From: Alphaproteobacteria bacterium
GTDB lineage: Bacteria; Pseudomonadota; Alphaproteobacteria; UBA7887
Reading direction: 5' to 3'
Length of the DNA: 64,000 nucleotides
Assembly: GCA_965216755.1 (NCBI GenBank)
Contig: CBDCGL010000011.1
Span: 3,626,963-3,690,962, forward strand
In this document: positions 2,640 to 30,268 of the stretch, piece after piece
Numbering within the stretch: position 1 is the stretch's first letter
Layout: every line of letters starts with the position of its first letter
Made by a program: the position numbers and the translations under genes
The notes under the pieces: generated by a model
The model's input: the letters and a program-made list of their open reading frames with translations, nothing else
Told to the model about the DNA's origin: nothing
The model's database searches: none

Positions 2640-2663
2640 GGTGGCGGCGCGGGAGCGGCGGTT

Positions 2664-3371
2664 ATGTCCGATCTCGGCACCGCGCTCGCCCTCGCGGTCG
2701 GCCTGATTGCGGCCGGCGACGCGGCTCTCGCCGAGATTGTCGCGCGTTCGCTGTATGTTAGCCTGACGGCGACGGTACTTGCGGCGGCCATTGCCCTGCC
2801 GCTCAGTGCGCTGATTGCGGTCTATCGGTTTCCCGGCCGGCGCGCCGTGATCGTCTTGTTCAGCGCGCTGATGGGTCTGCCGCCGGTCTTTGTCGGCCTG
2901 CTTGCTTATTTGCTGTTGTCGCGCGCCGGTCCACTCGGGTTTCTCGGACTGCTCTATACGCCGACCGCGATGATCCTGGCCCAAGCGGCCCTGGTCTTGC
3001 CGATTGTGCTAACCATCGCCCACCGTTCGCTGCGCGACCTGTATGAAGACTATATGGAGCAACTATGTTCCTTGGGTGCGCGGCCATGGCAAATGATTGC
3101 CACCCTATTGTGGGACGGACGCGGGCGCTTGGCGACAGCCGTGATGGCGGGCTTTGGGCGCGCCACGGCGGAAGTTGGGGCGGTGCTGATCGTCGGTGGC
3201 AACATCGCCCATGTGACCCGGGTCATGACCACGACCATCGCGCTGGAAACCAGCAAGGGCAATCTGGCTCTGGCCTTGGCGCTCGGCATCATCTTGGTGG
3301 CGATTGCCTTGGCGGTTAACGCGGCCGTCGCGCTGATGCGCGTGCCTCGACGCGCGCGTCGGCACGCCTGA
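2664..3371 (+). CDS. ABC transporter permease (tungstate/molybdate TupB-like)
   Basis: 235-aa polytopic membrane protein immediately followed by an ABC ATPase and a TupA-type binding protein. Confidence 0.7.
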   Translation: MSDLGTALALAVGLIAAGDAALAEIVARSLYVSLTATVLAAAIALPLSALIAVYRFPGRRAVIVLFSALMGLPPVFVGLLAYLLLSRAGPLGFLGLLYTPTAMILAQAALVLPIVLTIAHRSLRDLYEDYMEQLCSLGARPWQMIATLLWDGRGRLATAVMAGFGRATAEVGAVLIVGGNIAHVTRVMTTTIALETSKGNLALALALGIILVAIALAVNAAVALMRVPRRARRHA

Positions 3372-3374
3372 AAC

Positions 3375-4088
3375 ATGGCCATTCTGCCCCTGAGCCTAGA
3401 AGCGGTGAGCTACCGCTTGGACGGCCGAACGCTGATCGACGCGGTGACTTTAACCATCGACGCCGGCCCAAAAACCATGGTTTTGGGCCATAACGGTGCC
3501 GGCAAAAGTTTGTTGATGCGTCTCTGTCATGGATTAATTGGCCCCAGTGCCGGGACCCTACGCTGGCAAGGCCCCGATGGCGCTGCCGCGCGGCGCCGGC
3601 AGGCCATGGTGTTCCAGCAGCCGACCATGTTGCGCCGTTCGGTCCGCGCCAATGTCGCCTACGGCATGAAACTGCGTGGATTGCCACGCGCCCAACGCGC
3701 CACGCGGACCGCCGCCGTGCTGACTCGCACCGGCTTGCTCGACCGCGCTGATCAAGCCGCCACCAGCCTGTCTGGTGGCGAACGCCAACGCCTGGCCTTG
3801 GCGCGCGTTTGGGCACTGCAGCCCGAGGTGCTGTTTCTCGACGAGCCCAGTGCCAATTTGGATCCCGGTGCGACCGCGGCGGTTGAAGCCATCATCGAGG
3901 AAATCCATCGCGCCGGCACGAAAATCATCATGACCACGCACGATGTGGGCCAAGCGCGACGATTGGCCGACGAAGTGCTTTTTTTACACAAGGGACAGAT
4001 CGTTGAGCGCGCTACCGCCACAGACTTTTTCGCCGGGCCGGCATCTGAGCCGGCGCGCGCGTTTCTCGAGGGTCGATTGCTATGGTGA
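3375..4088 (+). CDS. ABC transporter ATP-binding protein
   Basis: Walker A GHNGAGKS, ABC signature LSGGERQR, Walker B LFLDEP. Confidence 0.9.
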   Translation: MAILPLSLEAVSYRLDGRTLIDAVTLTIDAGPKTMVLGHNGAGKSLLMRLCHGLIGPSAGTLRWQGPDGAAARRRQAMVFQQPTMLRRSVRANVAYGMKLRGLPRAQRATRTAAVLTRTGLLDRADQAATSLSGGERQRLALARVWALQPEVLFLDEPSANLDPGATAAVEAIIEEIHRAGTKIIMTTHDVGQARRLADEVLFLHKGQIVERATATDFFAGPASEPARAFLEGRLLW

Positions 4089-4921
4089 GGATGTCGGCGC
4101 GCGTTTTTGCTTGGTTGGCGCTTTTTACCATGGTTCCCACGGTTGACGCCGGACATGCACAAGATGACTTCATCGTCGTTGCGTCAACCACATCGACCGA
4201 GAATTCCGGGTTGTTTGAGCGTATCGTGCCGATATACGTGGCTGCAACGGGCATTGACGTGCGCGTGGTCGCGGTCGGCACCGGCCAGGCGCTGCGCATC
4301 GCGCGCAATGGCGATGCCGACGTGCTGTTGGTCCACCACACATCGTCGGAAGAACAATTCGTGGCCGACGGTTTCGGCGTCGCGCGTTATGATTTGATGT
4401 ATAACGATTTCGTCATTGTTGGGCCGCGCGATGATCCGGCCGCGATTGCCGGGACTGCGGATGCGGCGGCCGCTCTGGCCAAAGTCGCCGCGGCTCAAGT
4501 CACCTTTGTCTCGCGTGGCGATGACAGCGGCACCCACAAGAAAGAACTGCGTTTGTGGCGGGCTGCGTCCGTCGATGCGGCCGCGGCCAGCGGTACATGG
4601 TACCGCGAGCTTGGCACCGGTATGGGGGCGACGCTGAACACCGCCGCCGCCATGGCCGCCTATGCCTTGACCGACCGGGCCACTTGGACGAACTTCCAAA
4701 ACCGCGACGACATGGCGATCTTGGTCGAGGGCGACCTGGCGTTGTTCAATCAATATGGCGTGATTTTGGTCAACCCGGCGCGCCACCCCCACGTCAAGGC
4801 CGAACACGGCCAGGCGTTCATCGACTGGCTGCTGTCCACAGATGGCCAAAACGCGATCGGCGCGTTTCGTGTCGACGGTCAGCAAGTGTTTTTTCCCAAC
4901 GCCGCGGTGGACCACGAGTGA
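4082..4921 (+). CDS. periplasmic oxoanion (tungstate-type) substrate-binding protein
   Basis: Signal peptide present. The VASTTSTENSGL motif is characteristic of TupA-like binding proteins. The start overlaps the ATPase stop. Confidence 0.7.
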   Translation: MVRMSARVFAWLALFTMVPTVDAGHAQDDFIVVASTTSTENSGLFERIVPIYVAATGIDVRVVAVGTGQALRIARNGDADVLLVHHTSSEEQFVADGFGVARYDLMYNDFVIVGPRDDPAAIAGTADAAAALAKVAAAQVTFVSRGDDSGTHKKELRLWRAASVDAAAASGTWYRELGTGMGATLNTAAAMAAYALTDRATWTNFQNRDDMAILVEGDLALFNQYGVILVNPARHPHVKAEHGQAFIDWLLSTDGQNAIGAFRVDGQQVFFPNAAVDHE

Positions 4922-8628: not shown

Positions 8629-9357
8629 ATGAAACGGTACATTTATATCGCTGCACTATCCATAGGGCTTGTCTGGCCGTTGGCGACCGCCGGCGCCGGC
8701 GACACGCCCATTTTGGTGGAGATGTTCACGTCAGAGGGTTGTTCCTCATGCCCACCAGCCGACCGGTTCGCGGGCGAGCTGCGGCAGCGCGACGACGTTG
8801 TGGTGTTGAGCTTTCACGTCAACTATTGGGACTATATCGGCTGGGCCGACCGGTTCGCGACCGATGAGACCACCAATCGCCAACACGCTTACGCGCGTGC
8901 CCTGGGGCAGACCCATGTCTATACGCCGCAGGCCGTGATCCATGGTACGACGCACAAGGTCGGTTCGGATCACGGCGCGGTCAATGCCGCGATCCGCGCC
9001 GCCGCGCTGGGTCAAAGCCCGCAGCCCTCAATCGCCTTTGAACAAATCCATCGGTCGACGGTGCGGATCAGCATTGGTGACGCGCCCACAGACGAACCGG
9101 CGGAGGTTTTCCTGGTCGGTTTCGCGAGTGAGGGGGAAAGCGAGGTCAGACGCGGCGAAAACGCGGGCCGCACCCTGAAAACCTACAATGTGGTGCACGA
9201 TATCCGCCGGCTGGGAACCTGGTCCGGCGCCGCCACGGTGTTTGATTTGGCGGCCACCGAAATCATGGCTGACGGCAGCGACAATTGCGCGGTCATTGTG
9301 CAGGCGCGCGGCAACGGTCCGGTTTTCGCGGTCGCCGCATTCGAGATGGCCAAATAA
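8629..9357 (+). CDS. DUF1223-family secreted thioredoxin-like protein
   Basis: Signal peptide, FTSEGCSSCPPAD motif, about 240 aa. Confidence 0.7.
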   Translation: MKRYIYIAALSIGLVWPLATAGAGDTPILVEMFTSEGCSSCPPADRFAGELRQRDDVVVLSFHVNYWDYIGWADRFATDETTNRQHAYARALGQTHVYTPQAVIHGTTHKVGSDHGAVNAAIRAAALGQSPQPSIAFEQIHRSTVRISIGDAPTDEPAEVFLVGFASEGESEVRRGENAGRTLKTYNVVHDIRRLGTWSGAATVFDLAATEIMADGSDNCAVIVQARGNGPVFAVAAFEMAK

Positions 9358-9379
9358 ACGGTTATTGCCGGTTGTTGCG

Positions 9380-11257
9380 TTAACCGACCGCGATTCCTTT
9401 TTCCATCATTGTTGTCATGCGTTTGGAAAACGCCGCTGGGTCGGGGATCGTGTCGCCTTCGATGATGCGCGCTTGGTCCAACAGCAACCAGGCAGCATCG
9501 TCGATAAGTGAATCCGCCGGGTGGTCCTTGGCCCGCGCCACCAATGCCCTGATCAGTCCGTTTTTCGGATTGACCTCCAGAATACGTTGCGACACGCCGT
9601 GCATTTGATCGTGTTGGCGCAACATCCGTTCAAGATGCATATCCAGGCCGGTTTCATCCGCGACCAGACAGACGGCACTGTCGGTCAGTCGGCGCGAGAC
9701 TCGGACGTCTTTGACCGCTTCGCCGAGGGCTGTCTTGAGGCGCGCGATCAACAGGCCAACATCGGCCTGCGCCGGTGATTCGCCGTCGTCTTTGGTTTCG
9801 GCCGGCCCACAGGGTGCGTCGATCTTGTCCAAGTCGATATCGCCGCGGGTCACCGATTTAAACGGTTTGTCGGCGAAACTGTCGACGCGTGACAGCCAAA
9901 ACTCATCGACCGGATCGGTCAGCAGCAACACTTCGACTCCGCGGGCAACCAAGCCTTCGATCTGTGGCGAATTGCGCAATTGTTGCTCGGCGTCGCCCGC
10001 GACATAGTAGATCGCGTCTTGCCCGGGACGCATCCGCCCGACATAGTCGTCCAACGTAACCAGGTCGTCGCCATGGGTCGATTGGCATCGCAACAATGCC
10101 AAGAGCTGTTCGCGCGCGCCGTCTTCCTCGTACAGGCCTTCTTTGATCACCGCGCCGAAATTGTCCCAGAAGGTGGCGAACGCTTCTGGTTCCTTGTCGG
10201 CTTTCTTTTTCAATTCATTGAGCACACGTTTGACGAGTGCGGCGCGAATCTTGGCAACGATCGGATTGTGCTGCAGCATCTCGCGACTGATGTTGAGCGG
10301 CAGATCTTCGGAATCGACAATGCCGGTCACGAAGCGTAGCCAGCTCGGCATCAGGTCTTTGCAGTCGTCGGTAATAAACACCCGGCGCACGTAAAGCTTC
10401 ACGCGGTGTTTGCGCTCCGGCTGGAACAGGTCGAACGGCCGCGTGGACGGTACGAACAGAAGCGACGCATATTCCAGCCGCCCTTCGGCCTTCATGTGCA
10501 CGGTCAGCCACGGATCATCGAATGCGTGCGCCACGTGATGGTAGAACTCTTTGTATTGTTCTTCGCTGATCTCGTTCTTGGGGCGCGTCCACAGGGCCGA
10601 TGCGGTGTTGATGGTGTCTTCCTTGCCGTCTTCCGCCAGCAAGATCGGCAGGGCGATATGGTCGGAATAGGTCTTGACGATCTGCCGCAGTCGCGCGGTC
10701 TCCAGAAACTCGCTTTCGCCCTTGCGCAAATGCAGGACCACTTCCGTGCCGCGACGTTCGCGTGGCACCTCGTCGATGGTGTATTCGCCCGTGCCGGCCG
10801 AGCGCCATTGCCACGCTGTATCCGCGCCGGCTTTCGCCGTGGTTACGGTCACATCATCGGCGACCATGAAAGATGAATAAAATCCAACACCGAACTGGCC
10901 AATCAGCGTCGCGTCTTTGGCCTGGTCGCCGGTCATCTGGTCGACGAATGCGGCGGTCCCCGAGCGCGCGATGGTGCCTAAATTCTCGACCAGGTCGTCG
11001 CGATTCATGCCTATGCCATTATCGGTGACGCTGATGGTGCGTTTTTTTGCGTCGACGGCGATGGTGACTTTGAGATTGGGGTCGTCAACCAGCAACTCCG
11101 GCTGTGTCAGACCGGCATAGCGCAACCGGTCGCAGGCGTCGGATGCGTTGGAAATCAGTTCACGCAGGAAAATATCTTTGTGACTGTAAAGCGCGTTGAC
11201 CATGAGGTTGAGCAGCTTGCTGACCTCGGCCTCAAACGCGCGCGTTTCAGCGCCCAT
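9380..11257 (-). CDS. htpG: molecular chaperone HtpG (Hsp90)
   Basis: FEAEVSKLLNLMVNALYSHKDIFLRELISNASDA and GQFGVGFYS motifs. Start set at the internal ATG (11257), because the upstream 38 codons of the ORF are Arg-rich and not Hsp90-like. Confidence 0.95.
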   Translation of the reverse strand: MGAETRAFEAEVSKLLNLMVNALYSHKDIFLRELISNASDACDRLRYAGLTQPELLVDDPNLKVTIAVDAKKRTISVTDNGIGMNRDDLVENLGTIARSGTAAFVDQMTGDQAKDATLIGQFGVGFYSSFMVADDVTVTTAKAGADTAWQWRSAGTGEYTIDEVPRERRGTEVVLHLRKGESEFLETARLRQIVKTYSDHIALPILLAEDGKEDTINTASALWTRPKNEISEEQYKEFYHHVAHAFDDPWLTVHMKAEGRLEYASLLFVPSTRPFDLFQPERKHRVKLYVRRVFITDDCKDLMPSWLRFVTGIVDSEDLPLNISREMLQHNPIVAKIRAALVKRVLNELKKKADKEPEAFATFWDNFGAVIKEGLYEEDGAREQLLALLRCQSTHGDDLVTLDDYVGRMRPGQDAIYYVAGDAEQQLRNSPQIEGLVARGVEVLLLTDPVDEFWLSRVDSFADKPFKSVTRGDIDLDKIDAPCGPAETKDDGESPAQADVGLLIARLKTALGEAVKDVRVSRRLTDSAVCLVADETGLDMHLERMLRQHDQMHGVSQRILEVNPKNGLIRALVARAKDHPADSLIDDAAWLLLDQARIIEGDTIPDPAAFSKRMTTMMEKGIAVG

Positions 11258-11463: not shown

Positions 11464-13977
11464 ATGCAGGTTCAGACCGCGAACGGCCGCATCACAGCCG
11501 TCCTCGGCCCGACCAATACGGGCAAGACGTATTTGGCCGTCGAGCGCATGCTCGGCCACGCCAGTGGCATGATCGGGTGCCCCTTACGCCTATTGGCGCG
11601 CGAGATTTACGATCGCGTGTGTGCGATACGGGGGACCGGGCAGACGGCCCTGATCACCGGTGAAGAGCGGATCATTCCCGCGCGGCCGCGCTATTTCATT
11701 TGCACGGTCGAATCGATGCCGATCGACCGACAGGTCGAATTCGTCGCGATCGATGAAATTCAGCTCGCCGCCGATCCCGACCGCGGCCATGTTTTCACCG
11801 ATCGCTTGCTGCATGCGCGTGGTTTGTCAGAGACCATGTTTCTGGGCGCCGAAACCATGGCGCCGATCATTCGGCAATTGGTCCCGAAGGCCCAATTCGT
11901 GTCGCGGCCGCGCTTTTCAACCTTGCGATACACGGGCGAACGGAAACTCACCCGGTTGCCGCCCCGCAGCGCCGTGGTCGCGTTTTCGGCGGCCGAAGTT
12001 TACGCTTTGGCGGAAGTCATTCGCCGCGTGCGTGGCGGTACCGCGGTGGTGTTGGGCGCCCTGAGTCCGCGCACACGCAATGCCCAAGTGGAGTTGTATC
12101 AATCGGGCGAGGTCGATTATCTGGTTGCCACGGACGCGGTCGGCATGGGTCTCAACATGAACGTCGACCATGTCGCGCTGGCGGCGACGCGGAAGTTCGA
12201 CGGGCGCATGCTCAGGTCCCTGCACGCCGCCGAAATCGCCCAGATTGCTGGCCGTGCGGGCCGCCACATGCGCGACGGCACCTTTGGCACGACCGCAAAT
12301 ATCGGCGCTCTGGATGGTGCGGATGTGTTGGCCGTTGAGAGCCACACTTTTCCCGCCTCGGCCTCGGTGTTTTGGCGCAACACGGATTTGGATTTGTCAT
12401 CGGTCGCCGGCTTGTTGGCCGACTTGGAGCGAAAGCCACGCGCCGATTGTCTACGTCGCGCGCCCGAGGGCGAGGACCTGATCTCGCTGCGCGCGCTTGC
12501 CGCCATGCCCGCGGTCGCGGCCCGCGCCACCGATTACGATCGTGTATCGCTGCTGTGGGACGTGTGCCGTATTCCCGATTTTCGCAAGGTCATGGTCGAC
12601 GCACACTTCCGCTTGCTGGCACAGATCTATGGCCATCTCACGGGTCCCAGCGAACAGCTGCCAGACGCTTGGGTTGCGCGCTTGGTCAACCATCTTGATC
12701 GCACCGAAGGTGATATCGACACCCTGGCACAGCGGATCGCCCATATTCGCACCTGGAACTATGTTGCGCACCGGCCGGGTTGGGTGGTCGATGCCGCCGG
12801 TCTGCAGGATCGTGCTCGCGCCATTGAAGACCGTCTGTCTGATGCCTTGCACCGGGCCCTGACCAATCGCTTTGTCGATCGACGCACGGCGGCGCTGGTG
12901 CGGGGGTTGCGCGCCCGCGACACGACCTTGGCGTCGGTTGGATCGGACGGCACCGTCTGTATCGAAGGTGAGCCGGTCGGCCGCCTGACTGGCCTGTCAT
13001 TCTCACCCGACAACCGCACATCTTGGCAGGCCGATCGAACCCTGCAAGCCGCGGTGCGCAGGGTCTTGATACCGGCGGTCGAAGGTCGCGCCGCGCGGTT
13101 GATCGCGTCCCGCGATGACACTTTCGCGGTCGGACAAGACGGCACGCTCTTGTGGCGCCAGGCGCCGGTTGGTCGGATCGTGCCCGGGCCCTCGTGGCAA
13201 GATCCAGCCGTGCGCATGGCCGGTAACGACTATCTCGATGGGGCGCGGCGCGAACTGGTTCGCGGTCGTTTGCAGGCGTGGCTGCGCCGCTACATCGATC
13301 AAGCGTTTGCCACCTTGCGCCGTGCCCAGCAGAGTGACACCAGCGCTGCGGTGCGCGGTTTGATGTTTCAACTGGCCGAGGCCGGGGGATCGATGCGCCG
13401 CGCCGATGTCGATGCCCAAATCAAGCTGTTGGATCGCGCCGACCGACGGCAACTCGCGCGTCTTGGAATCCGGTTGGGGCGCGACAGCGTTTATGCGCTG
13501 GACATGATCAAACCGCACGCGATCGCGGCACGGCGGCTGTTGTGGCAGGCCCAGCACGGTGAGGCCCCCGATCTGCCACCGGCGGGGGCCACGTCGGTGC
13601 CAGACGACGGCAGCGTGACACCGGATTTCTATGAGGCCATTGGCTATCGGGTGGTTGGCCCGCGGGCGATCCGGATCGACATTTTCGAGCGACTCACCGC
13701 TGCCTTGCGTCAGCGGGCGCGGACCGGGCCGTTTCCGGCCGATGCCGCGTTGCTGGCGCAAGCTGGTTGCCGCCGGGACGAGTTCGATAGTCTACTCAAG
13801 GCGTTGGGTTATACGGCCGTGGCCCGCGACGGTGCCGACGGACCCCAGCTTTACGCCTTTAAACGCCGACAGACTCGCAAAAGGCGTGCGCGGTCAAAGG
13901 CCGACGGCGCGCAGCGGCGCGGGTCACCCTTTGCGGTTCTCGCGCAGTTGCGCGGCGCCACCCAGCGTTCCACATAG
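11464..13977 (+). CDS. Suv3-like ATP-dependent helicase-related protein
   Basis: Walker A GPTNTGKT, DEIQ box, ATDAVGMGLN and QIAGRAGR helicase motifs, with a long C-terminal extension. Confidence 0.8.
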   Translation: MQVQTANGRITAVLGPTNTGKTYLAVERMLGHASGMIGCPLRLLAREIYDRVCAIRGTGQTALITGEERIIPARPRYFICTVESMPIDRQVEFVAIDEIQLAADPDRGHVFTDRLLHARGLSETMFLGAETMAPIIRQLVPKAQFVSRPRFSTLRYTGERKLTRLPPRSAVVAFSAAEVYALAEVIRRVRGGTAVVLGALSPRTRNAQVELYQSGEVDYLVATDAVGMGLNMNVDHVALAATRKFDGRMLRSLHAAEIAQIAGRAGRHMRDGTFGTTANIGALDGADVLAVESHTFPASASVFWRNTDLDLSSVAGLLADLERKPRADCLRRAPEGEDLISLRALAAMPAVAARATDYDRVSLLWDVCRIPDFRKVMVDAHFRLLAQIYGHLTGPSEQLPDAWVARLVNHLDRTEGDIDTLAQRIAHIRTWNYVAHRPGWVVDAAGLQDRARAIEDRLSDALHRALTNRFVDRRTAALVRGLRARDTTLASVGSDGTVCIEGEPVGRLTGLSFSPDNRTSWQADRTLQAAVRRVLIPAVEGRAARLIASRDDTFAVGQDGTLLWRQAPVGRIVPGPSWQDPAVRMAGNDYLDGARRELVRGRLQAWLRRYIDQAFATLRRAQQSDTSAAVRGLMFQLAEAGGSMRRADVDAQIKLLDRADRRQLARLGIRLGRDSVYALDMIKPHAIAARRLLWQAQHGEAPDLPPAGATSVPDDGSVTPDFYEAIGYRVVGPRAIRIDIFERLTAALRQRARTGPFPADAALLAQAGCRRDEFDSLLKALGYTAVARDGADGPQLYAFKRRQTRKRRARSKADGAQRRGSPFAVLAQLRGATQRST

Positions 13978-20406: not shown

Positions 20407-20925
20407 GTGACGATGCGAGCGATGCGGGTGGCCGTGTTATTGGCTGTATGGTGTGCGACATTGATAGCAGGCGCGCGCGGCGTGCGCGCCGCCGACGAAC
20501 CGGATTTCCTGGTACTTGGGGTCGGCGCCTACGATGTTCTTGATGACTTCATCGCGACAGAGTTCGACGCGCAGTTTCGTTTCAATGAACGGCTTTGGTT
20601 TATTCGACCGATGGTCGGCGCGATGGCCACCACCGACAGCGCTTTTTTCGCTTATGCCGGGATATTTGCCGACATCAACCTTGGTCAGAGACTGGTCGTG
20701 ACACCAAGTTTTGGCGCCGGCATCTACCACGAAGGCGACGGCAAGGATTTGGGCGGCAATCTGCAATTCCGCTCGGCGGTAGAATTCGCCTATCGATTCG
20801 ATGATCGGGCGCGATTGGGGGTTGAACTCGGCCATTTGTCGAACGGCAGTATTTTGGATACCAATCCGGGCGAGGAATTTATCATCGTCAACTATTCACT
20901 GCCGACCGATGTGTTCACACGATAA
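20407..20925 (+). CDS. acyloxyacyl hydrolase (PagL-like lipid A deacylase family)
   Basis: Signal peptide and small beta-barrel pattern, with a C-terminal GHLSNG...NPG motif containing the His/Ser typical of PagL-like proteins. Confidence 0.65.
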   Translation: MTMRAMRVAVLLAVWCATLIAGARGVRAADEPDFLVLGVGAYDVLDDFIATEFDAQFRFNERLWFIRPMVGAMATTDSAFFAYAGIFADINLGQRLVVTPSFGAGIYHEGDGKDLGGNLQFRSAVEFAYRFDDRARLGVELGHLSNGSILDTNPGEEFIIVNYSLPTDVFTR

Positions 20926-21518
20926 CCGGCGCGCAACCGTCGATATCGCAGGAAAATGATCGTCGCGAAGATCGGCGCGCCCACCGCCGCCAAGATCAAG
21001 AACGGCTGCAACCAGCCAAGCCACGCGACTGGCGCAACGATGAACAATGTGTCGTCCGGGTCAAAACCACCACGGCCGGGAATGGCCTGCGTGCCCGGAG
21101 GTAGCATCGCGTCGATTTGGGCGGCCAGCCAAAAGGTCGCGGTGACCGCCAGCCCCGCGAGTACACCCATGGCCGGCGCCCACCAACCGAGCCCGCTGTT
21201 GACCAGGCCGGCGCCGATACCGACAAAAAGCAGTGCCGTGACGACATTGTCACAAATCAGATCATAGACGTGACCCCAGGCGGATGATTGGCTGGTCATG
21301 CGCGCCAACACGCCGTCGGCACGGTCCAAAAGCATCGATAACACATAGACGATTGCGGCCACCCAATTCCACGTCGCCGCGCCCATCGCGAACAGACCCG
21401 CCGCCGCCAGCCCCGTCACCAGGCGGGCGGTGGTCAAGTGATTCGGCGTGACGGCGGTCCCGGCCAATGGCCGCACCGCCGCCGTAACCACTCGGTGCGC
21501 CCAGGTATTATGACTCAT
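20892..21518 (-). CDS. CDP-alcohol phosphatidyltransferase family protein
   Basis: Perfect D-x2-DG-x2-AR-x8-G-x3-D-x3-D motif (DRADGVLARMTSQSSAWGHVYDLICD) in a polytopic membrane protein. Confidence 0.9.
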   Translation of the reverse strand: MSHNTWAHRVVTAAVRPLAGTAVTPNHLTTARLVTGLAAAGLFAMGAATWNWVAAIVYVLSMLLDRADGVLARMTSQSSAWGHVYDLICDNVVTALLFVGIGAGLVNSGLGWWAPAMGVLAGLAVTATFWLAAQIDAMLPPGTQAIPGRGGFDPDDTLFIVAPVAWLGWLQPFLILAAVGAPIFATIIFLRYRRLRAGYRVNTSVGSE

Positions 21519-22284
21519 CGCCGTTGCCCGCCGTCGCCGGTGATTGGGGAAGGGGCTGAAGTTGCGGCCAAACACAGCGTTCGGCCATGTCGATGTCGTC
21601 GGGAAAATCGATCTCGGTCCAGGGCAGTCCGGTAATGTCCTCGAAGCCGAAAGCCCCCGGCGGTTCCGCGATCAACAAGTCGCGCAGCGCCTCATCATAG
21701 TAGTCGGTGGTTTGGCCGGCATCGATATAGCGGCGAGTGGCGTCGGCCAGGCGTCTGGCCATGTGCCCGGACAGGCGGAAAAAGCCGACCGATTCACCGT
21801 GCCAATCGTGAGCATGCTCTGGTTGTTTGCGAAAGTCGACCAATTGGCCGTTCTTCACGCAAAGTTTCGCCGGCTCGTCACCGGGTTCGATATTACGGTC
21901 AAGCAAGAAGCAGTTGGCGTGGCGCGAACCGAGCAGTCGCGCGATCATGCGCTGATCGTAAAGGACATCGCCGTCCATCAGCAACACGTCGTCGCCGGCC
22001 GACAAATGGGCGCGCAGCGCCCATTGGGTCACGATGCTGCCCGCGCGATAGTCCGGATTGTGGACCGTCTCAATCGGAATGCCGGCAACGGACTGGGCCA
22101 GTTCGTGCGTGATATCGGCGGCACGATAACCGGTTGCGACGACAATTCTATCGACTCCGCAACTCTGCAATATGCGAACATGTCTTTCCAACAGTGTGTG
22201 GCCGCCAAAGCGCAGCAGAATCTTCGGCCCGTCAACGCCGATCAACCGGTCGCCGACACCGGCGGCAAACAGACACGCGCGCAT
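21508..22284 (-). CDS. LicC-like nucleotidyltransferase (phospho/phosphono-alcohol cytidylyltransferase type)
   Basis: AAGVGDRL (GxGxRL) N-terminal motif and NTP_transferase fold pattern. The ATG at 22284 overlaps the upstream stop; the 106-codon upstream extension is Arg-rich and rejected. Confidence 0.8.
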   Translation of the reverse strand: MRACLFAAGVGDRLIGVDGPKILLRFGGHTLLERHVRILQSCGVDRIVVATGYRAADITHELAQSVAGIPIETVHNPDYRAGSIVTQWALRAHLSAGDDVLLMDGDVLYDQRMIARLLGSRHANCFLLDRNIEPGDEPAKLCVKNGQLVDFRKQPEHAHDWHGESVGFFRLSGHMARRLADATRRYIDAGQTTDYYDEALRDLLIAEPPGAFGFEDITGLPWTEIDFPDDIDMAERCVWPQLQPLPQSPATAGNGDES

Positions 22285-23270
22285 CAAGATACGCCGCGCG
22301 ACCGCGCGCGCCACCAGCGGTGCCCCTCGATCGCCTGCCAGGCAATCAGGCCGGGGACGCCGCCCAGGATTTCGCGCATCCGTCTGACGATCGCAATGGC
22401 GAGGCCGACATCGGCGCCGAGACCCAACACGCCAGCCACGATCATATAGCCGCCTTCCTGAAGGCCGAGCCCGCCGGGTACGGCGAACGCCGCGCTGCGC
22501 ACCGCTTGCACCAAGCCCTGAATGATCAAGGCTTCGACCATGCCCGCCGGGACCCCCATGAATGCCAATGCCAGATACACTTCGCCGGCGCCGAGCGCCC
22601 AACTCACCAGATGATAGACCGAAGCGACCGCCATCTCGCGGCGTCTGCCATAGGTCGCGCGTACGGCGCGGTCCAACCGGCGCGCACCGCCAACCAAGTT
22701 TGCCAGACTGTCGCCGCCCAAGCGCTCGATAAATCCGGCAAGAAACCCAAACAAGCCGCGTTGTTGAACGGCGGCGAAGCCGACAACGGCGGCAAAGAAC
22801 AATGCAGTAACCGCAAGCACAGCGCCGGTTAACTCGCGACCGCCATCATGGTGCGCAACCAAAAGGCCCAAGGCCACCAAGGTAAACAGGGCCTGCATCA
22901 GCACGATCAACGTCATATCGACGACCAAACTGGCCGCGGCCAGCGGCCCCGGCATGCCGCGCACGATCAAAAGTCGCGCCACCACCACATCGCCGCCGAT
23001 CTGTGCGACCGGCAGCAGTTGGTTTACCGACTGGCGAATCCAACGCATTTTCCACGCCACCAACAGCGACGGGCGCGCCCGGGTCGCCGCCACGCGACGC
23101 CAGCCAAAGGCGTCGGCCAATAGCGGAATGGCATCGAAGGCGACGATGATCAAGATCCCCCAGCCAACCGTGACTAAGGCTTCGGCCAAGGTATCGGCGC
23201 CACGCCACACAACCAAACCCGTAAACAGCGCCAAGCCGGCCAAACCAAACAGGACCATGAGCCGTTTCAT
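22284..23270 (-). CDS. UPF0104 / lysylphosphatidylglycerol-synthase-TM-region (HpnL-like, flippase-like) membrane protein
   Basis: 328-aa polytopic protein starting MKRLMVLFGLAGLALFTGLVVWRG..., resembling the HpnL/UPF0104 family. Overlaps both neighbours by 1-4 nt. Confidence 0.7.
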   Translation of the reverse strand: MKRLMVLFGLAGLALFTGLVVWRGADTLAEALVTVGWGILIIVAFDAIPLLADAFGWRRVAATRARPSLLVAWKMRWIRQSVNQLLPVAQIGGDVVVARLLIVRGMPGPLAAASLVVDMTLIVLMQALFTLVALGLLVAHHDGGRELTGAVLAVTALFFAAVVGFAAVQQRGLFGFLAGFIERLGGDSLANLVGGARRLDRAVRATYGRRREMAVASVYHLVSWALGAGEVYLALAFMGVPAGMVEALIIQGLVQAVRSAAFAVPGGLGLQEGGYMIVAGVLGLGADVGLAIAIVRRMREILGGVPGLIAWQAIEGHRWWRARSRGVS

Positions 23271-25900
23271 GGCTCTTGGGTCCTCGCCGTGGCGATCGTC
23301 ATCAGGGCCGGCAACAATAGGATCGTGGCCGCGAATGTTACGCCAACGCCAATGATCAGCAGCATACCCATACTTGCCGTGCCGACATGTTCGGACACGG
23401 CCAAGGCCCCGAAACCAGCCATGGTGGTCGCCGCGCTCAACAAGGCGGCGCGCGCCGTCGATGTCGCCAGGACGGGTTGTGCCGGCGCGGCGCGCTGGCG
23501 CCGCATCAGGTGAATGGCGCTGTCGACACCAATGCCCAGCAGCAGGGGCAGTACGATGACATTGGCGAAGTTGAAGGTCATCCCGGCAAGCGTCATGATC
23601 GCGGCCGTCAACAGCGCGCCCAGCAACAGCGGTGCCATCACCAAGGCGACGTCGATCGGACGCCGGGTTACGATCAGCAACAATGCGGCGATCGAAACCA
23701 ATGCGGCCAGCAGAGCCTGAATAAAAGCCGTTATCACGGTATCGCCTGCTTCCAACACCAAAACCGGTTGATCGGTGATATCTTCAGCAACCGTTCGCAC
23801 GGCATCGACAAAGCGCACCAAGGCGTCATTGTTGGCGACGATGTCCTCGGCCGGGAAGACCTGAACCCGTTGGCCGCCATCGCGCGCCTGGAATTGCGCC
23901 CGCAGGTCCTCTGGCAGCGCCGATTCGGTAAACGGCGCGGCGGTAAGCGATGCGTCCAACAGGGCGATCTGATAGGGCAATGCACCGAGCCAGGCGTCGC
24001 GAATAGCCGCCAGTGAGATCGACCTGTCGTCACCGGCGCGCAGGGCGCGATCCAATGCGGTGCGCAGGTCGGATACGCCGGCGGGCGCGTCAGGGCGCGC
24101 TGTGGCAACTTGGTCAAGTGCGCGCAGCAGGGCCTTCAAGGCGAGCTGTTCTTCATCCGGTGTGCTCGCGGTGCCGGGCGCCAAAGCAAACGGATCTGGT
24201 TCAGACACAAACGCAATGTCTTGGATGATTTCGTATTTCGTATCTTGATCTGCGGGCACGAAGTCGTCCAATGTGATGGCTTCGTCAACTTCGGGCAGCT
24301 GTTCGAAGGCGGTCTTGAGAGACGCCGCCTCGGCGCGGTCGGCGGCGACAACGGACGCGGTCCACGGCTTGGTCTGGGTGTCGTCCAGCAAAGTGCGCAG
24401 CGCGGTGACCGATTCACGTGCCGGATTTTGTAGGTTGAGCGGGTTCGGGTCGAAGCCGACCTGTGGCGCCACCGCCAAGCCGACCAGTGCCAGCACGGCG
24501 GCACCAATCGCGATCGGGCGCGCGTTGCGGTGCGGCCAGTGCGCGAATCGGTTTGCGCGTTGTGACCGCGGGCGCACTGAGCCGGGTGGCAACACCAGCG
24601 TCAACAGCGCCGGCAAAACCGTCAGGTTGGCGAAGAGACTGACGAACATGCCCGTGCCGGCGATAACGCCCAACTCCGACACACCGTCATAGTCGGTCAG
24701 CAAAAAGGCATAAAACCCGACCGCGGTCGACACGGCGCACAAGGTCAGGGCACCGCCGACGGCGCGTCCGGCTTTGGCAACGGCCGCGGTTGGATCGAAG
24801 CCGGCGGCGACCATCTCGCGGAAACGCAATCCATAGTGGATGCTGGCATCGATCCCAAGACTGACGAACAGAACCGCAAACGCGATCGAGATCAGGTTCA
24901 AATGTCCGACCAGGACCGCGGCAAACCATGCCGTCCACACCAGGCCGATGGCCAACGTCACCAATGCGGCGATCACCAAGCGGATAGAGCGTAAGCCAAC
25001 TAACAAAATCACCGCGACCAAGAACAACGCCACCAGTCCGGCGTGCTGCGCGCCCAATTGGGCGGATTCAAGCTCGTCATGGCCAAGCGCAACCGTGCCT
25101 GTCAATGACACCGTGACTCCGTTGGTCGGCGTTAGGGCCGCCGCGGCCGCGATATCGCGAATCGACTGTAGAACCGCCGCGCCCGGCATCAGCTGCGCGT
25201 AGTCGAGTGCGGCCGGCTGGACAACGATCACGGCGCGTAGGTCGGCCGCGGTCGGCGCGGTCCCGTGCATGATCTCAACCCAAGACAACTGCGCCGGGAC
25301 GCCGTCCAACAGGTTCTCGATCACACGCCCCATGCGTGTGAACAGCAACGCCAAATCTTCCAGCGGAGCCGCTTTGGTCAAGGCATCGTCGATGCCCAAC
25401 CGCAAGACCGCGGAAAGACCGCGCAGGCTCATGTCCTGGCGCAGGCGCTGCAACAGCGGCTGTGCCTCGCCCAAATCGTCGAGCAGGTCGAGAAGTTCCG
25501 CCTCGCTGAGATAGAACAAACCATTGTTGGCAAAAAACGCGCCGGCGCCCGGGGCGTAGACATAGGGAAAATGTTCCGGCTGGGCGTTAAGCGCGGTGGT
25601 GAGTGTGTCGCGCGCGGCGCGGACGCGATCGGGCGTGTCTGCTTCCAACAGAACGGTGACCGTGTCGTTCAGGCGCGGGAACTGCGCCTTGTAGGCTTTG
25701 TAAGTTCTCAGAAACGGTGTTTCGTCGGAGATCAAGTCCAAGGTGTCGGTATCGATTGTCATGGTCGCGACCGTATAGGGAACGGTCGCGGCGGCGCTGA
25801 CAATGGCCAAGATCACGACCCACACTGCGTATCGCTGAACAGTACCGAGCCACGTCGCCAAGACACGATCGAGCGGGGCTGTCGGTTGGCGATCAGACAA
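23267..25900 (-). CDS. HpnN-like RND/MMPL family lipid exporter
   Basis: 877 aa with two 6-TM bundles and two periplasmic loops. The N-terminal ...TIDTDTLDLISDETPFLRTYKAYKAQFP... matches the hopanoid-transporter HpnN-type pattern. Confidence 0.8.
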   Translation of the reverse strand: MSDRQPTAPLDRVLATWLGTVQRYAVWVVILAIVSAAATVPYTVATMTIDTDTLDLISDETPFLRTYKAYKAQFPRLNDTVTVLLEADTPDRVRAARDTLTTALNAQPEHFPYVYAPGAGAFFANNGLFYLSEAELLDLLDDLGEAQPLLQRLRQDMSLRGLSAVLRLGIDDALTKAAPLEDLALLFTRMGRVIENLLDGVPAQLSWVEIMHGTAPTAADLRAVIVVQPAALDYAQLMPGAAVLQSIRDIAAAAALTPTNGVTVSLTGTVALGHDELESAQLGAQHAGLVALFLVAVILLVGLRSIRLVIAALVTLAIGLVWTAWFAAVLVGHLNLISIAFAVLFVSLGIDASIHYGLRFREMVAAGFDPTAAVAKAGRAVGGALTLCAVSTAVGFYAFLLTDYDGVSELGVIAGTGMFVSLFANLTVLPALLTLVLPPGSVRPRSQRANRFAHWPHRNARPIAIGAAVLALVGLAVAPQVGFDPNPLNLQNPARESVTALRTLLDDTQTKPWTASVVAADRAEAASLKTAFEQLPEVDEAITLDDFVPADQDTKYEIIQDIAFVSEPDPFALAPGTASTPDEEQLALKALLRALDQVATARPDAPAGVSDLRTALDRALRAGDDRSISLAAIRDAWLGALPYQIALLDASLTAAPFTESALPEDLRAQFQARDGGQRVQVFPAEDIVANNDALVRFVDAVRTVAEDITDQPVLVLEAGDTVITAFIQALLAALVSIAALLLIVTRRPIDVALVMAPLLLGALLTAAIMTLAGMTFNFANVIVLPLLLGIGVDSAIHLMRRQRAAPAQPVLATSTARAALLSAATTMAGFGALAVSEHVGTASMGMLLIIGVGVTFAATILLLPALMTIATARTQEP

Positions 25901-25915
25901 GGGACGCGTGAGACC

Positions 25916-27097
25916 TTAGACGGTGGCCAAATGGCGGCGCAATCGTTGCGCGACCGCTGCTGGCGTGACCGTTGGGCGCGGCAGACCAGCCGGGACGCCG
26001 GGCCGGGTGGGCAGGTGCACAAAGTGCGGCCCGGGCCCCTGTTCGCCCAATCTATTCGCCAATACATGCGGCGTCGTGACACGTTGGGTGGTGGCATAGC
26101 CGCACGCGGCTGCGACCGCGCAAAAATCGACGGTGTGCGAAACGGTCGCTTGACCGCCGGTCGATTCATGCATGCCGTTGTCGAATAGAATATGCACCAG
26201 ATTGTTGGGGCGCGCCGCGCCGATCGTGGCCAGTGCACCAAGGCGCATCAAGGCGGCACCATCGCCATCCAAGGCAATCACGCGCACGTCTGGCCGCGCC
26301 AGCGCGAGCCCCAGCGCAAGGCTGGATACGCAGCCCATCGAACCGACCATGTAGAGCTGGTTTGGCCGGTCTTCCAACCCATAAAGGGCGCGGCCGGTAA
26401 ACCCCGTCGTGGCGATGATCACGTCGCGCGCGCCGCTCGTCGCCTGCACCGCCGCCAGCAGTTCGTGGCGCGTCGCGTCGGCGGGCGTCGCGACCGTCGG
26501 TATAGCGGTGCGCGGCGCCGGTCGGTTGGTCTCGTTCTGGGCTAGGGGATAGGGCGCGACACTCCCCTTCGACATCAAAAGGGCATACGGGCGACCGGTC
26601 TTGCGGCGCTGCGCGTCGGCGCGGTCAAAAACGCCGGCGACCGCTTCGGATGTGCGCGGAAACGGCTCCCACGGCACCTGCAACAGTTCCAATTGGCGAC
26701 CGGTTATGGGGCCCATCAGCCCATGTTGCGGTTCATCCCCGGCGCCGCCCGGCTGGCCCCGCCAAGTGACGATCAGCAGCAACGGGATGTTGAAGATGTG
26801 GGTCAACGACGACAATGGGCTGACCGCGTTGCCTAGCCCGGAGTTTTGCATCATCACCACACTGCGCCGACCACCGAGCTCGGCACCCGCCGCAATGGCG
26901 ACCGCATCGCCTTCATTCGTCGCACCGACATAGTCCAATCCGTCGGCCCCAATCACGTAGTTGATGAACGGGGTCAGATAGGAACAAGGCACGCCTGTGA
27001 ACAGATCGTAGCCGCGCGCTTTGGCGGCGCCTATAAACGCCTCGGCGTCGATCACAATGTCACACGAAATTGCCGGCGACCAACAGGTCGTCGACAT
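25916..27097 (-). CDS. ppd: phosphonopyruvate decarboxylase
   Basis: [10 protein letters not shown]-terminus; ThDP motif [31 protein letters not shown]. Start uncertain: ATG 27097/27100 (overlaps pepM) or GTG 27055 just after the pepM stop. Confidence 0.9.
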
Positions 27098-28721
27098 CAT
27101 CGATGTCGAGCCAATGCCCGGTTGTGTAGACGACCCGCACCTTCTGGCCCGCGCCAACCAAGCGATTGAACAACGCATCGATGCCGGCGTTTTCGAACGC
27201 CACGCGATCGTCGTCGCGCCAGCCCGTGAGGGTTTCAAAGGCCACCTGCGCGCCGGCGGCCGTGAAGCGCGCCACCCCCATCCACTCGCCGTGGATCTTG
27301 CCGGATAGTGCCGGTCCCATCTCGGCCAGCCAGACCGGGGCATAGTAGGCCTCGCGGCTATTGGGCAGTGAACATTTAACATAGTCGGCCGCCCGATTGG
27401 CGCCGCGATTGCGGCTGGTTTTCCAGTTGGTATCGACGGCAATGGTGATGTCGGCGTCGCTTTCCGTCAGCATGTCCAGCACATAACGACGAAACAGCAC
27501 GTCGCCATAGGATACGAACACGTCCCTGGTCGCAGGTTGCAGTGCCAGCGCCAGGGACACGATCTCTTGCGTGGTGTCGTAAGCGAGATTGTCGACATAA
27601 TCGAGGGCGGGCAGGTCGATCTTGTGCTTGGCATAGCCGCGCACCACGGTGATGTCTTTGACATCGGCTTTGCGGTAAACCTCGGCTATGTGCGCCAAGA
27701 TCGGCTTGCCGGCCACATCCAGCATTGCTTTCGGCTTGTGCTCGGTCAGGGCGCCCAATTCGCGGCCGCGCGAGGCAGCCAAAATGATCGCCGTCGCGGC
27801 GCCCTGGCTGGGTAGATAAGTTTCCTCGGCCCGCTTCAGTTCATCGGCGCCTTGCAAGCGAAACACTTCCGCCACCGGCGCGATCGCGTGTTCGACGCCA
27901 AGCAAATTTTCGTCGTCATGAATGGTCGCCGCGGTGCGCTGCATGGCGGTGATTGCCGCGCGCAGCAAATGATTGGCCCAAATCACCATCGAAACGCCGT
28001 GATCGCGGAACGCGTCGGTGGGGGTGGTGTAGTATTTGGTCGGTACCAACACCACCGGGCAGCGCCGATCCCAGGCGCGCAAGAAGCTGAACACTTCATC
28101 AGCGTTGGATCCGGCACTGTGAATCAAGATCGCGTCGGCACCAGCCGCATGATAGGCGCGCGCCCGGCGCAAGGCCTCCTCGAGCCCCCAACCGGCAATG
28201 AATGCTTCGACCCGTGCGACAATGGAAAAATCCGGATCGTGCTGGGCCGCCTTGCCGGCCCGAATCTTGCCGCAAAACTCATCGATGTCAGCCAGCGGCT
28301 GTGTGGCGCCGGCAATGAAGCTGTTGGTCTTCGGGAACTGTTTGTCCTCGATGCAGACCGCCGCCACGCCACGGCTTTCCAACTTTTGCACGAGCCGGCG
28401 CATATTGTTGAAATTGCCATATCCAGTGTCGCCGTCGAGCATGATCGGCACGGTGCACGCGTCGTTCATGAATTCGACCACTTCAAGCACCTGGGTCCAG
28501 CTGGCCTCATTGTTGTCGCGCACACCAAGCGCCGCCGCCATTGACAAGCCACTGGCCCAAACCGCGCCGAACCCGGCCTCCTCGGCGATTTTCGCGCTCA
28601 GGCCGTTATGTGCCTCGCACACAAAACTAAGTTCCGGGGTGTTCAAGGCGGCGCGGAAACGGGCAGCGCGCGACAGTTGCGCGCGTGGCGCGGTCTCGAT
28701 CGGTACGGCAGGTGCCTGCAT
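27060..28721 (-). CDS. pepM: phosphoenolpyruvate mutase fused to a C-terminal nucleotidyltransferase domain
   Basis: PepM-specific EDK-x5-NS motif ([13 protein letters not shown]) in the N-terminal ~300 aa. The C-terminal ~250 aa has [10 protein letters not shown]...KPKAML (GxG-type NTP-transferase motif). Confidence 0.9.
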
Positions 28722-28820
28722 TATGGTGCTATACAGATCGCTTCAATGGTCCACAATGTCCGTTTGCGTCCGCGGCGGACGCATTCCAAACCGAACGGCG
28801 GCACCATAGCACGTGTGACG

Positions 28821-29293: not shown

Positions 29294-30268
29294 ATGAAAG
29301 CGATCCTGGCGCATGAATTCGGCGGACCCGAGGTTCTGAAGTACGAACAGACGGCGGACCCGGTCGCCGGCCCTGGCGACGTCGTGATCGACGTGAAAGC
29401 CGCCGGAATTAATCCGGCAGACACCTACATGCGCGGTGGCGCCTATGCGATTGTGCCGCCCTTGCCGTACACGCCGGGCGGCGATGCGGCGGGTGTGATC
29501 GCCGCCGTCGGTGCGGGGGTCAGTGATTTCGCAGTTGGCGACCATGTCTTCGTTGGCACGGCGATGGGCTTTAACATGACCGGCTGCTACGCGGAAAAAG
29601 TCGTGCGGCCGGCAACCGATGTGCTGCCGTTGCCCAAAGGCGTCAGCTTCGCCCAGGCCGCCGCCCTCGGCGTGCCGTATGCCACCGCGCACTACGCCCT
29701 GTTCGCGCGCGGCGGCGCCGAAACGGGCGAAACCGTATTCGTCCATGGTGCGTCGGGCGCCGTTGGCACGGCCGCGATCCAGCTTGCCAAACGCGCCGGT
29801 CTGACCGCAATGGGTTCCGCCGGTACAGAACGCGGATTGACTTTGGTGCGCGAACAGGGCGCGGCGCACGCCGTCGATCACAGCAAAGAGGGATATATCG
29901 AACAGCTCCGCGGGCTAACCGGCGGTACCGGGCCGGCGCTCATTCTGGAAATGTTGGCCAACGTCAATCTCGCCGCCGATCTTGATCTGGTGGCGAAATA
30001 TGGTCGCATCGTCGTGATTGGCAATCGCGGCGAAATCACCATCAACGCGCGCGTGGCCATGATGAAGGAATTGGACGTGCGCGGCATCGCCCTGTTCAAT
30101 GGCGCGGCGGCCCAGATGCGCGAGATCATGACAGATCTGGTCGCGGGGCTTGAAGATGGGACGCTCAACCCGATTGTCGGTCGCGAGATGCCGCTGGCTG
30201 AAGCGGCGGCGGGCCATGTCGCCGTGTTGGAGCCTGGCGCTTTCGGCAAGATCGTGCTTGTGCTTTGA
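29294..30268 (+). CDS. NADPH:quinone oxidoreductase (MDR/zeta-crystallin family)
   Basis: MKAILAHEFGGPEVLKYE...PGGDAAGVIAAVG...VHGASGAVGTAAIQLAK Rossmann motif. Confidence 0.85.
   Translation: MKAILAHEFGGPEVLKYEQTADPVAGPGDVVIDVKAAGINPADTYMRGGAYAIVPPLPYTPGGDAAGVIAAVGAGVSDFAVGDHVFVGTAMGFNMTGCYAEKVVRPATDVLPLPKGVSFAQAAALGVPYATAHYALFARGGAETGETVFVHGASGAVGTAAIQLAKRAGLTAMGSAGTERGLTLVREQGAAHAVDHSKEGYIEQLRGLTGGTGPALILEMLANVNLAADLDLVAKYGRIVVIGNRGEITINARVAMMKELDVRGIALFNGAAAQMREIMTDLVAGLEDGTLNPIVGREMPLAEAAAGHVAVLEPGAFGKIVLVL

Follow-up and report, generated by a model that had tools for sequence, protein, structure and literature searches.

Among the described phosphonate biosynthesis gene clusters, the closest to the locus analyzed here are the "Group 1 phosphonolipid" clusters (Yu et al., 2013, as cited), which correspond to the "Burkholderiales_CDP-OH" gene-cluster families (Li and Horsman, 2022; PMC8942020). 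Their core comprises a phosphoenolpyruvate (PEP) mutase fused to a PntC-type nucleotidyltransferase (Ppm~PntC), phosphonopyruvate decarboxylase (Ppd), 2-aminoethylphosphonate (AEP) transaminase (AEPT), a 2-oxoglutarate dioxygenase, a second PntC, a CDP-alcohol phosphatidyltransferase, and hpnL (PMC8942020; PMC5987646), and such a cluster has been drawn for Nostoc and Burkholderia (PMC5987646). Group 1 phosphonolipids have never been detected (PMC8942020). The 64-kb stretch of an alphaproteobacterial genome described here (the window; G000:C11:3626963-3690962; genome 99.8% complete, approximately 5 Mb) carries a six-gene operon on its minus strand (window positions 20892-28721), the first two genes of which code for a PEP mutase (Ppm or PepM) fused to a nucleotidyltransferase (NTase) and for Ppd. 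This operon represents a Group 1 variant in which AEPT is encoded in trans, the dioxygenase is missing, and an hpnN-family gene is built in. It probably makes, activates, transfers, and exports an AEP lipid head group, and its association with hopanoid genes, which is not confined to this window, is its main interest.

Genes were assigned to families by Pfam and NCBIfam models with curated cut-offs, and 30 larger open reading frames (ORFs) of the window were put through a Pfam scan (Table 1). As in Group 1, HpnL and a CDP-alcohol phosphotransferase are encoded together with Ppd, a Ppm~PF12804 fusion, and a second PntC-like NTase. These five proteins are 35-68% identical to those of three Group 1 loci in the Burkholderiaceae, a related-phylum family, with the transferase at 38-43%. 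Unlike the Group 1 core, the locus lacks AEPT in cis (a PhnW-type gene is located approximately 2 Mb off) and a 2-oxoglutarate/Fe(II) dioxygenase in the operon, has the HpnN-family RND gene between ppd and hpnL, and differs in gene order. PhyH and TauD genes are located 12-17 kb from the operon in unrelated contexts. Every junction within the operon is an overlap or a gap of at most 15 nt: the GTG start of ppd lies 4 nt past the pepM stop, the hpnL start overlaps the hpnN stop by 4 nt, the ATG of the stand-alone NTase gene and the hpnL stop have one base in common, and the transferase start (when read from Met-20) overlaps the NTase stop by 11 nt. These tight junctions mark the six genes as one translationally coupled operon.

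Table 1. Coordinates of the phosphonate operon and of neighboring features, as positions within the 64-kb window.
Feature	Position	Strand	Basis
PepM with C-terminal PF12804 nucleotidyltransferase, bifunctional, 553 aa	27060..28721	-	Pfam, NCBIfam, motif, 16-sequence alignment
PepM part, residues ~1-300	27822-28721	-	PF13714
Fused NTase part, residues ~305-553	27063-27809	-	PF12804
Phosphonopyruvate decarboxylase (Ppd), GTG start	25916..27055	-	TIGR03297; junction sequence
HpnN-family RND/MMPL lipid exporter	23267..25900	-	TIGR03480; 5KHN match
HpnL-family membrane protein (PF03706, flippase-like)	22284..23270	-	TIGR03476
Stand-alone PntC-like cytidylyltransferase	21508..22284	-	PF12804; 6PD1 match
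CDP-alcohol phosphotransferase-family head-group transferase, Met-20 start	20892..21518	-	PF01066
PagL-family lipid A deacylase homologue, convergent with the operon	20407..20925	+	tBLASTN with the PagL (PF09411) gene of relative locus L023
MDR/PIG3-type quinone oxidoreductase, judged outside the system	29294..30268	+	Pfam, NCBIfam

An earlier note on this DNA, made from the sequence alone, had remarked that the operon lacks an aminotransferase and an iron-dependent alcohol dehydrogenase (Fe-ADH). This observation was correct: neither a class-V aminotransferase nor an Fe-ADH was found in the operon or among the 30 scanned ORFs, and tBLASTN searches of the whole genome with two AEPT queries returned nothing in the window. 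The "missing" TRANSAMINASE is present elsewhere, as a PhnW/AEPT gene at C11:1595639-1596715, 2.03 Mb from the window. Its product scored 483.7 bits on TIGR02326 (cut-off 400.8) and 522.5 bits on NF010006 (cut-off 296) and is the sole protein of the genome above the PhnW equivalog cut-offs; two weaker class-V aminotransferases are also encoded. No recognized C-P cleavage genes were found in the genome, where the best PhnX score was 40.8 bits against a cut-off of 220, PhnY reached 313 bits against 636, and PhnA and PhnJ gave no match. PhnW is thus without a catabolic partner, which would make the reverse reaction, the formation of AEP from phosphonoacetaldehyde and alanine, its simplest role. 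Of 23 genomes compared within the same family, nine carry all six genes of the operon. Seven of these also have PhnW, and it was found in not one of the 13 genomes that lack any Ppm. Gaps in the assemblies could account for the two exceptions: in the first, the conserved phnW neighbor abuts a contig end where phnW should follow, and in the second, whose assembly is 92% complete, the neighbor gene was not found either. Outside the family, orthologous clusters have AEPT directly after Ppd. The most likely interpretation is an ordinary 2-AEP pathway whose transaminase is encoded in trans. Of the possibilities raised earlier for the head group, completion by an enzyme encoded elsewhere may apply.

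Separation of the genes is also seen in other genomes. Many Paraburkholderia loci (L173, L175, L183, L187, L190, L193, L198, L202, L206) contain a trio of CDP-alcohol transferase, HpnL, and NTase genes with no PepM, Ppd, or AEPT within 10 kb, and in one Burkholderiaceae-like genome (G409) the trio and a PepM~NTase-Ppd-AEPT set are located on separate contigs (C4 and C5). The transfer and phosphonate-supply modules are therefore separable, as is phnW here. A Group-1-type locus of Caballeronia glathei (L177) codes for PepM~NTase, Ppd, NTase, HpnL, and the transferase and has no AEPT match in 21 kb; here, too, AEPT may be encoded elsewhere in the genome. Within the same family as the window, one locus (L031; G009:C35:52000-71999) carries a different, shorter Ppm of approximately 440 amino acids, 35% identical to the one described here, with its own Ppd, in a genome in which no shc, HpnN-family gene, or PhnW was found. 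This is a second, unrelated phosphonate cluster type in the family.

The second NTase that the earlier note had seen in the operon is present as described, with a PF12804 domain. Among solved structures it is closest to the PntC domain of Tde1415 (6PD1; E = 1e-11), to which it aligns over the whole domain (residues 2-242 to residues 4-238 of the 6PD1 chain), and on sequence grounds it falls into a subfamily other than that of the fused NTase. The locus thereby resembles the Ppm-PF12804/PntC enzymes exemplified by Tde1415 (Rice et al., 2019; PMC6697681) in both its fusion architecture and the whole-domain PntC alignment of the stand-alone enzyme. The nearest structure to the head-group transferase is AF2299 (4O6M). 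The pair of NTase and transferase resembles the two halves of IPCT/DIPPS, which makes a CDP-alcohol and hands it to a polyol, and this analogy would fit the proposed sequence of nucleotidyl activation and head-group transfer. Longer frames of 390-450 amino acids that hold a weaker transferase match were observed in nine genomes of a family from another class (f40), and these are possibly IPCT/DIPPS-like NTase-transferase fusions. In one of them (G205:C103) the transferase match of the long frame (11679-12287) is located beside hpnL (8971-9912) and shc (2409-4334), an adjacency checked in this genome alone; no Ppm was found in the nine f40 genomes of the sample.

Several observations weigh against AEP as the head group and against PhnW as its source. 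Tde-PntC contacts the AEP amine through Glu104 and Glu196; the stand-alone NTase has Asp at both positions, as does LicC, and a bulkier or different head group is possible because of this substitution. However, Ari-PntC is LicC-like and still prefers AEP, and the Asp residues therefore do not exclude AEP activity. If the head group were not AEP, an unlinked dehydrogenase could reduce phosphonoacetaldehyde to 2-hydroxyethylphosphonate (HEP), with subsequent cytidylylation of the Fom1 kind, or another non-amino phosphonate could be used, and PhnW would be unrelated to the operon. The two Asp residues, the lack of AEPT in cis, the Fe-ADH gene near phnW, and the fact that approximately 13% of ppm neighborhoods contain no known branch-point enzyme (PMC8942020) would all suit such a scheme. 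It is nevertheless clearly unlikely, given that the Fe-ADH, considered as a PhpC-type enzyme and rejected, reached 121 bits on TIGR03405, far under the cut-off of 424, that PhnW is a full equivalog confined within the family to operon-bearing genomes, and that the orthologous clusters elsewhere have AEPT.

PhnW itself is of the type usual in catabolism (TIGR02326), which is usually paired with PhnX, and is only approximately 37% identical to the cluster-linked AEPTs. Its gene is set among dehydrogenase and regulator genes and not among lipid genes, with the Fe-ADH gene 2.3 kb off, and these flanks look like a catabolic island. Together with the two operon-bearing genomes that lack PhnW in their assemblies and the two weaker class-V aminotransferases, these features could mean that PhnW is a leftover or a separate catabolic enzyme and that a promiscuous housekeeping aminotransferase supplies AEP. 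This explanation is very unlikely, since PhnX, PhnY, PhnA, and PhnJ are not there to complete a catabolic route, both exceptional genomes are compatible with assembly gaps, and phnW is intact whereas both of its neighbors are split by frame breaks. Each of these neighbors consists of two overlapping ORFs (8479-9051/8888-9565 and 11150-11857/11758-12243 in locus L008, G000:C11:1586000-1605000). One is a member of the ornithine-cyclodeaminase/mu-crystallin family, the other an SDR. Relatives have both in unbroken form (approximately 311-326 and 290 amino acids), and in this genome they are either pseudogenes or homopolymer errors of the long-read assembly.

With regard to regulation, a 17-bp perfect palindrome with two 8-nt arms and a central base is located at window positions 28766-28782, approximately 45-60 nt upstream of pepM. 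It was considered as an operator shared with phnW or the hpn locus and rejected, because it occurs once in the genome, has no second copy even when one mismatch is allowed, and is absent from the phnW and hpn loci. A co-regulated transaminase encoded elsewhere had been named earlier as the finding that would make this a standard 2-AEP pathway. A bona fide PhnW without catabolic partner was indeed found, but co-regulation is unsupported, as the single-copy palindrome provides no evidence for it.

The divergently placed MDR-family quinone oxidoreductase gene next to pepM had been put forward as a weak candidate for a phosphonoacetaldehyde reductase. That it is the missing reductase rests on proximity, and this must be regarded as extremely improbable. 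The protein is of the PIG3 type and scores below its family cut-off (NCBIfam), and the gene does not stand next to pepM in any relative examined, where a methyltransferase gene holds that place. The only homologue found is 35% identical and located approximately 11 kb away in one relative. The candidate was therefore rejected for lack of synteny with the operon.

The PepM with a C-terminal NTase that gave rise to this analysis was confirmed. The 553-amino acid ORF matches PF13714 (PEP_mutase) at residues 22-267 with 214 bits and PF12804 (NTP_transf_3) at residues 311-430, scores 381.9 bits on TIGR02320 (cut-off 319.55), and contains at residues 125-134 the motif EDKxxxxxNS, which has been defined as specific for Ppm (PMC6697681). 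It is the only true Ppm in this genome, and the adjacent Ppd scored 420.5 bits on TIGR03297 (cut-off 312.5). Several genes in the assembly have frame breaks, and the fusion was accordingly considered as a possible frameshift artifact. This was rejected since homologues align without interruption across the two domains. When 5.8 billion proteins were searched, both Pfam domains were present in every one of the 120 top clusters (52-72% identical), with query coverage of 93-100% in nearly all of them, and in the 80 best species genomes the match spanned residues approximately 5-553 in one stretch. An alignment of the fusion with 15 homologues from the Gemmatimonadota, Myxococcota, Spirochaetota, and Alpha-, Beta-, and Gammaproteobacteria was collinear throughout, and the Ppm motif was invariant in all 16 sequences.

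The earlier suggestion that the fusion reverses the domain order of Fom1 from fosfomycin biosynthesis did not hold. Both proteins combine a PEP mutase with a nucleotidyltransferase, but the Fom1 domain is N-terminal, belongs to PF01467, and acts on HEP, whereas the domain here is C-terminal and belongs to PF12804; PF01467 had no match in the 553-amino acid protein (Pfam). The two fusions are therefore not homologous, and the order cannot be called reversed. In an inventory of 1485 Ppm proteins, 33% were fused to PF12804 and 24% to PF01467, and clusters with a Ppm-fused NTase and a separate NTase nearby have already been described (Rice et al., 2019; PMC6697681). Ppm-PF12804 thus is the commonest Ppm architecture, with collinear homologues in many phyla, and the fusion in the window is ordinary.

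Unlike Tde-PntC, the fused NTase is nearer to LicC (1JYK; E = 8e-8) and has a loop, LAASRGxELG, that is atypical but found family-wide and corresponds to AAGLGTRL in LicC. Within this loop a Glu stands where LicC aligns the Arg of its GxGTR motif, which may count against an active domain. We take this Arg to be the canonical catalytic residue. An Arg three residues earlier, the lysine of a PK motif, the aspartate of YGD, and a C-terminal WxD...D are conserved, Lys331 is invariant, and the strong purifying selection on the domain argues for a function. No assay of a Ppm-fused PF12804 domain was found in the searchable literature.

From these assignments we infer a pathway in which the PepM domain would convert PEP to phosphonopyruvate, Ppd would decarboxylate this to phosphonoacetaldehyde, and the unlinked PhnW would aminate the aldehyde to AEP with L-alanine as donor. 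The stand-alone PntC-like NTase would then activate AEP to CMP-AEP, and the fused NTase may contribute to the same step or activate a second substrate. The CDP-alcohol phosphotransferase-family enzyme is predicted to transfer the aminoethylphosphonyl group to the hydroxyl of a membrane lipid, and the product would be flipped by the flippase-like HpnL and exported toward the outer membrane by the RND protein HpnN.

The family assignments of the two putative transport proteins link the operon to hopanoids. HpnL scored 306 bits on TIGR03476 (cut-off 195.65) and the RND protein 885.5 bits on TIGR03480 (HpnN; cut-off 751.85), and the latter aligns end to end with the structure of Burkholderia multivorans HpnN (5KHN; E = 9e-125). 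The two genes in the phosphonate operon are the genome's only members of the hpnN and hpnL families. By its gene content the host has a predicted hopanoid pathway, encoded at approximately C11:2.23-2.24 Mb by hpnC, hpnD, hpnE, dxs, shc (806 bits), hpnH, and ispH, together with an hpnG-like gene that scores just under the cut-off (181.9 versus 187.1 bits). Full-length homology and the presence of a hopanoid pathway in the host are shared with known HpnN and HpnL systems, whereas here the genes belong to a phosphonate operon at a distance of 1.4 Mb from shc and the RND protein stays under the strict HpnN equivalog cut-off.

This link extends beyond the single genome. In the family set, shc accompanied the operon without exception: the nine operon-bearing genomes had it and the other 14 did not, a coincidence that can probably be traced to a small number of evolutionary events. 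The phylum was sampled evenly (401 genomes), and this set contained 48 genomes with shc, 30 with HpnL, and 23 with Ppm. All 30 HpnL-bearing genomes had shc, compared to 48 of 401 overall, and among the Ppm-bearing genomes shc was found in all eight with HpnL but in two of the 15 without it. The head-group transferase subtype, traced by its own profile, gave strong matches in eight genomes, all with shc, and any match in 18, of which 17 had shc. Further HpnL-bearing genomes (n = 48) were reached through an HpnL alignment as query, which was required as a single HpnL protein gave no match against the genome contigs. Of these, 44 contained shc, the four exceptions being metagenome-assembled genomes (MAGs) or single-amplified genomes; a PepM-HpnL-transferase cluster was seen in 17, all with shc except one 1.8-Mb MAG. 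The module is also embedded in hopanoid loci. Three Salinisphaera species show the order shc-hpnN-transferase-…-hpnL-NTase-PepM~NTase-Ppd-AEPT-hpnH, and the module stands beside shc in two Gemmatimonadales MAGs, one betaproteobacterial MAG, and one other proteobacterial MAG. A connection of Ppm with hopene cyclase has been pointed out for Roseomonas and Belnapia, for which a "terpene-phosphonate" was suggested (Guzman et al., 2021; PMC8776678). A phosphonate pathway is tied to hopanoid genes in both cases, with the product known in neither, but that genome-mining remark concerned Ppm linked to shc, whereas the module described here is detached from shc and carries hpnN and hpnL.

Because of these phyletic and synteny data, bacteriohopanepolyol is favored over diacylglycerol as the lipid acceptor. 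We regard it as the leading candidate, with reservations; diacylglycerol or another glycerolipid is a possible but less probable acceptor, and something else is rather unlikely. The complete proposal is put forward tentatively: the operon and PhnW in trans may make an AEP-capped bacteriohopanepolyol, in which the phosphonyl group of CMP-AEP would be transferred to a side-chain hydroxyl of a C35 hopanoid that HpnL flips and HpnN exports. Points on the other side are that the RND protein reached 650.9 bits on the stricter model NF052374, which has a cut-off of 1100, that the operon is 1.4 Mb from shc in this genome, and that shc was not found within 10 kb of the module here or in the Burkholderiaceae, Cupriavidus, and Caballeronia loci examined. 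Furthermore, the phyletic patterns rest on few independent lineages, and no phosphono-hopanoid has ever been reported in the literature.

The product could instead be a classical AEP-diacylglycerol phosphonolipid, with HpnL and HpnN as recruited paralogues and the hopanoid link as a sign of shared outer-membrane physiology or ancestry. The acceptor of eukaryotic CDP-alcohol phosphotransferases is diacylglycerol, and the transferase has weak matches to CHPT1/CEPT1. Phosphonolipids have moreover been predicted for Group 1 clusters (PMC8942020; PMC5987646), and the low score of the RND protein on the strict HpnN model and the distance between operon and shc would agree with recruitment. We consider this a real possibility of lesser weight. 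It does not account well for the near restriction of HpnL and the transferase subtype to genomes with shc or for the embedding of the module in hpn loci of several lineages. The genome would otherwise be without a hopanoid exporter, although hpnN occurs in all bacteriohopanepolyol-producing alphaproteobacteria surveyed (PMC12583986), and the phosphonolipids predicted for Group 1 are the very products that have never been detected.

Two neighboring genes deserve mention. The PagL (lipid A 3-O-deacylase) homologue at the end of the operon keeps its convergent placement in all six related loci compared (L023, L025, L032-L034, L037), which hints at coordinated outer-membrane lipid remodeling, as an association only. 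In relatives, a UbiE/BioC-like S-adenosylmethionine-dependent methyltransferase gene divergently adjoins pepM (L023:9061-9870, L025:9094-9906, L033:158-967, L036:100-897). This slot is empty in the present genome, where the best homologue (C11:2547037-2547867) is 48% identical and located 1.1 Mb off, a few kb from bioD, bioF, and bioA. The methyltransferase could N-methylate the head group in relatives or be unrelated; as a clue to an N-methylated AEP it led to no conclusion, the enzyme being a generic UbiE/BioC-like one.

For genome annotation, these results mean that AEPT can be supplied in trans and that Ppm-PF12804 should not be taken as an inverted Fom1. Group 1 clusters are the most abundant ppm neighborhoods in sequenced bacteria, including Burkholderia pathogens, and their product has never been found; in the hopanoid literature searched, HpnL is of unknown function and phosphonates are never mentioned. 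These two open questions, the Group 1 product and the function of HpnL, are joined by the restriction of HpnL and the transferase to hopanoid producers, by the recurrent placement of the module inside hpn loci, and by the location of this genome's only hpnN and hpnL genes in a phosphonate operon, and both thereby become testable in cultured strains; such carriers include Salinisphaera hydrothermalis, S. aquimarina, Cupriavidus basilensis, Caballeronia glathei, and Burkholderia thailandensis. If the AEP-capped bacteriohopanepolyol exists, it would represent a lipid class never observed before; the most frequent type of bacterial ppm cluster would then have its product identified, and HpnL would have a role assigned to it.

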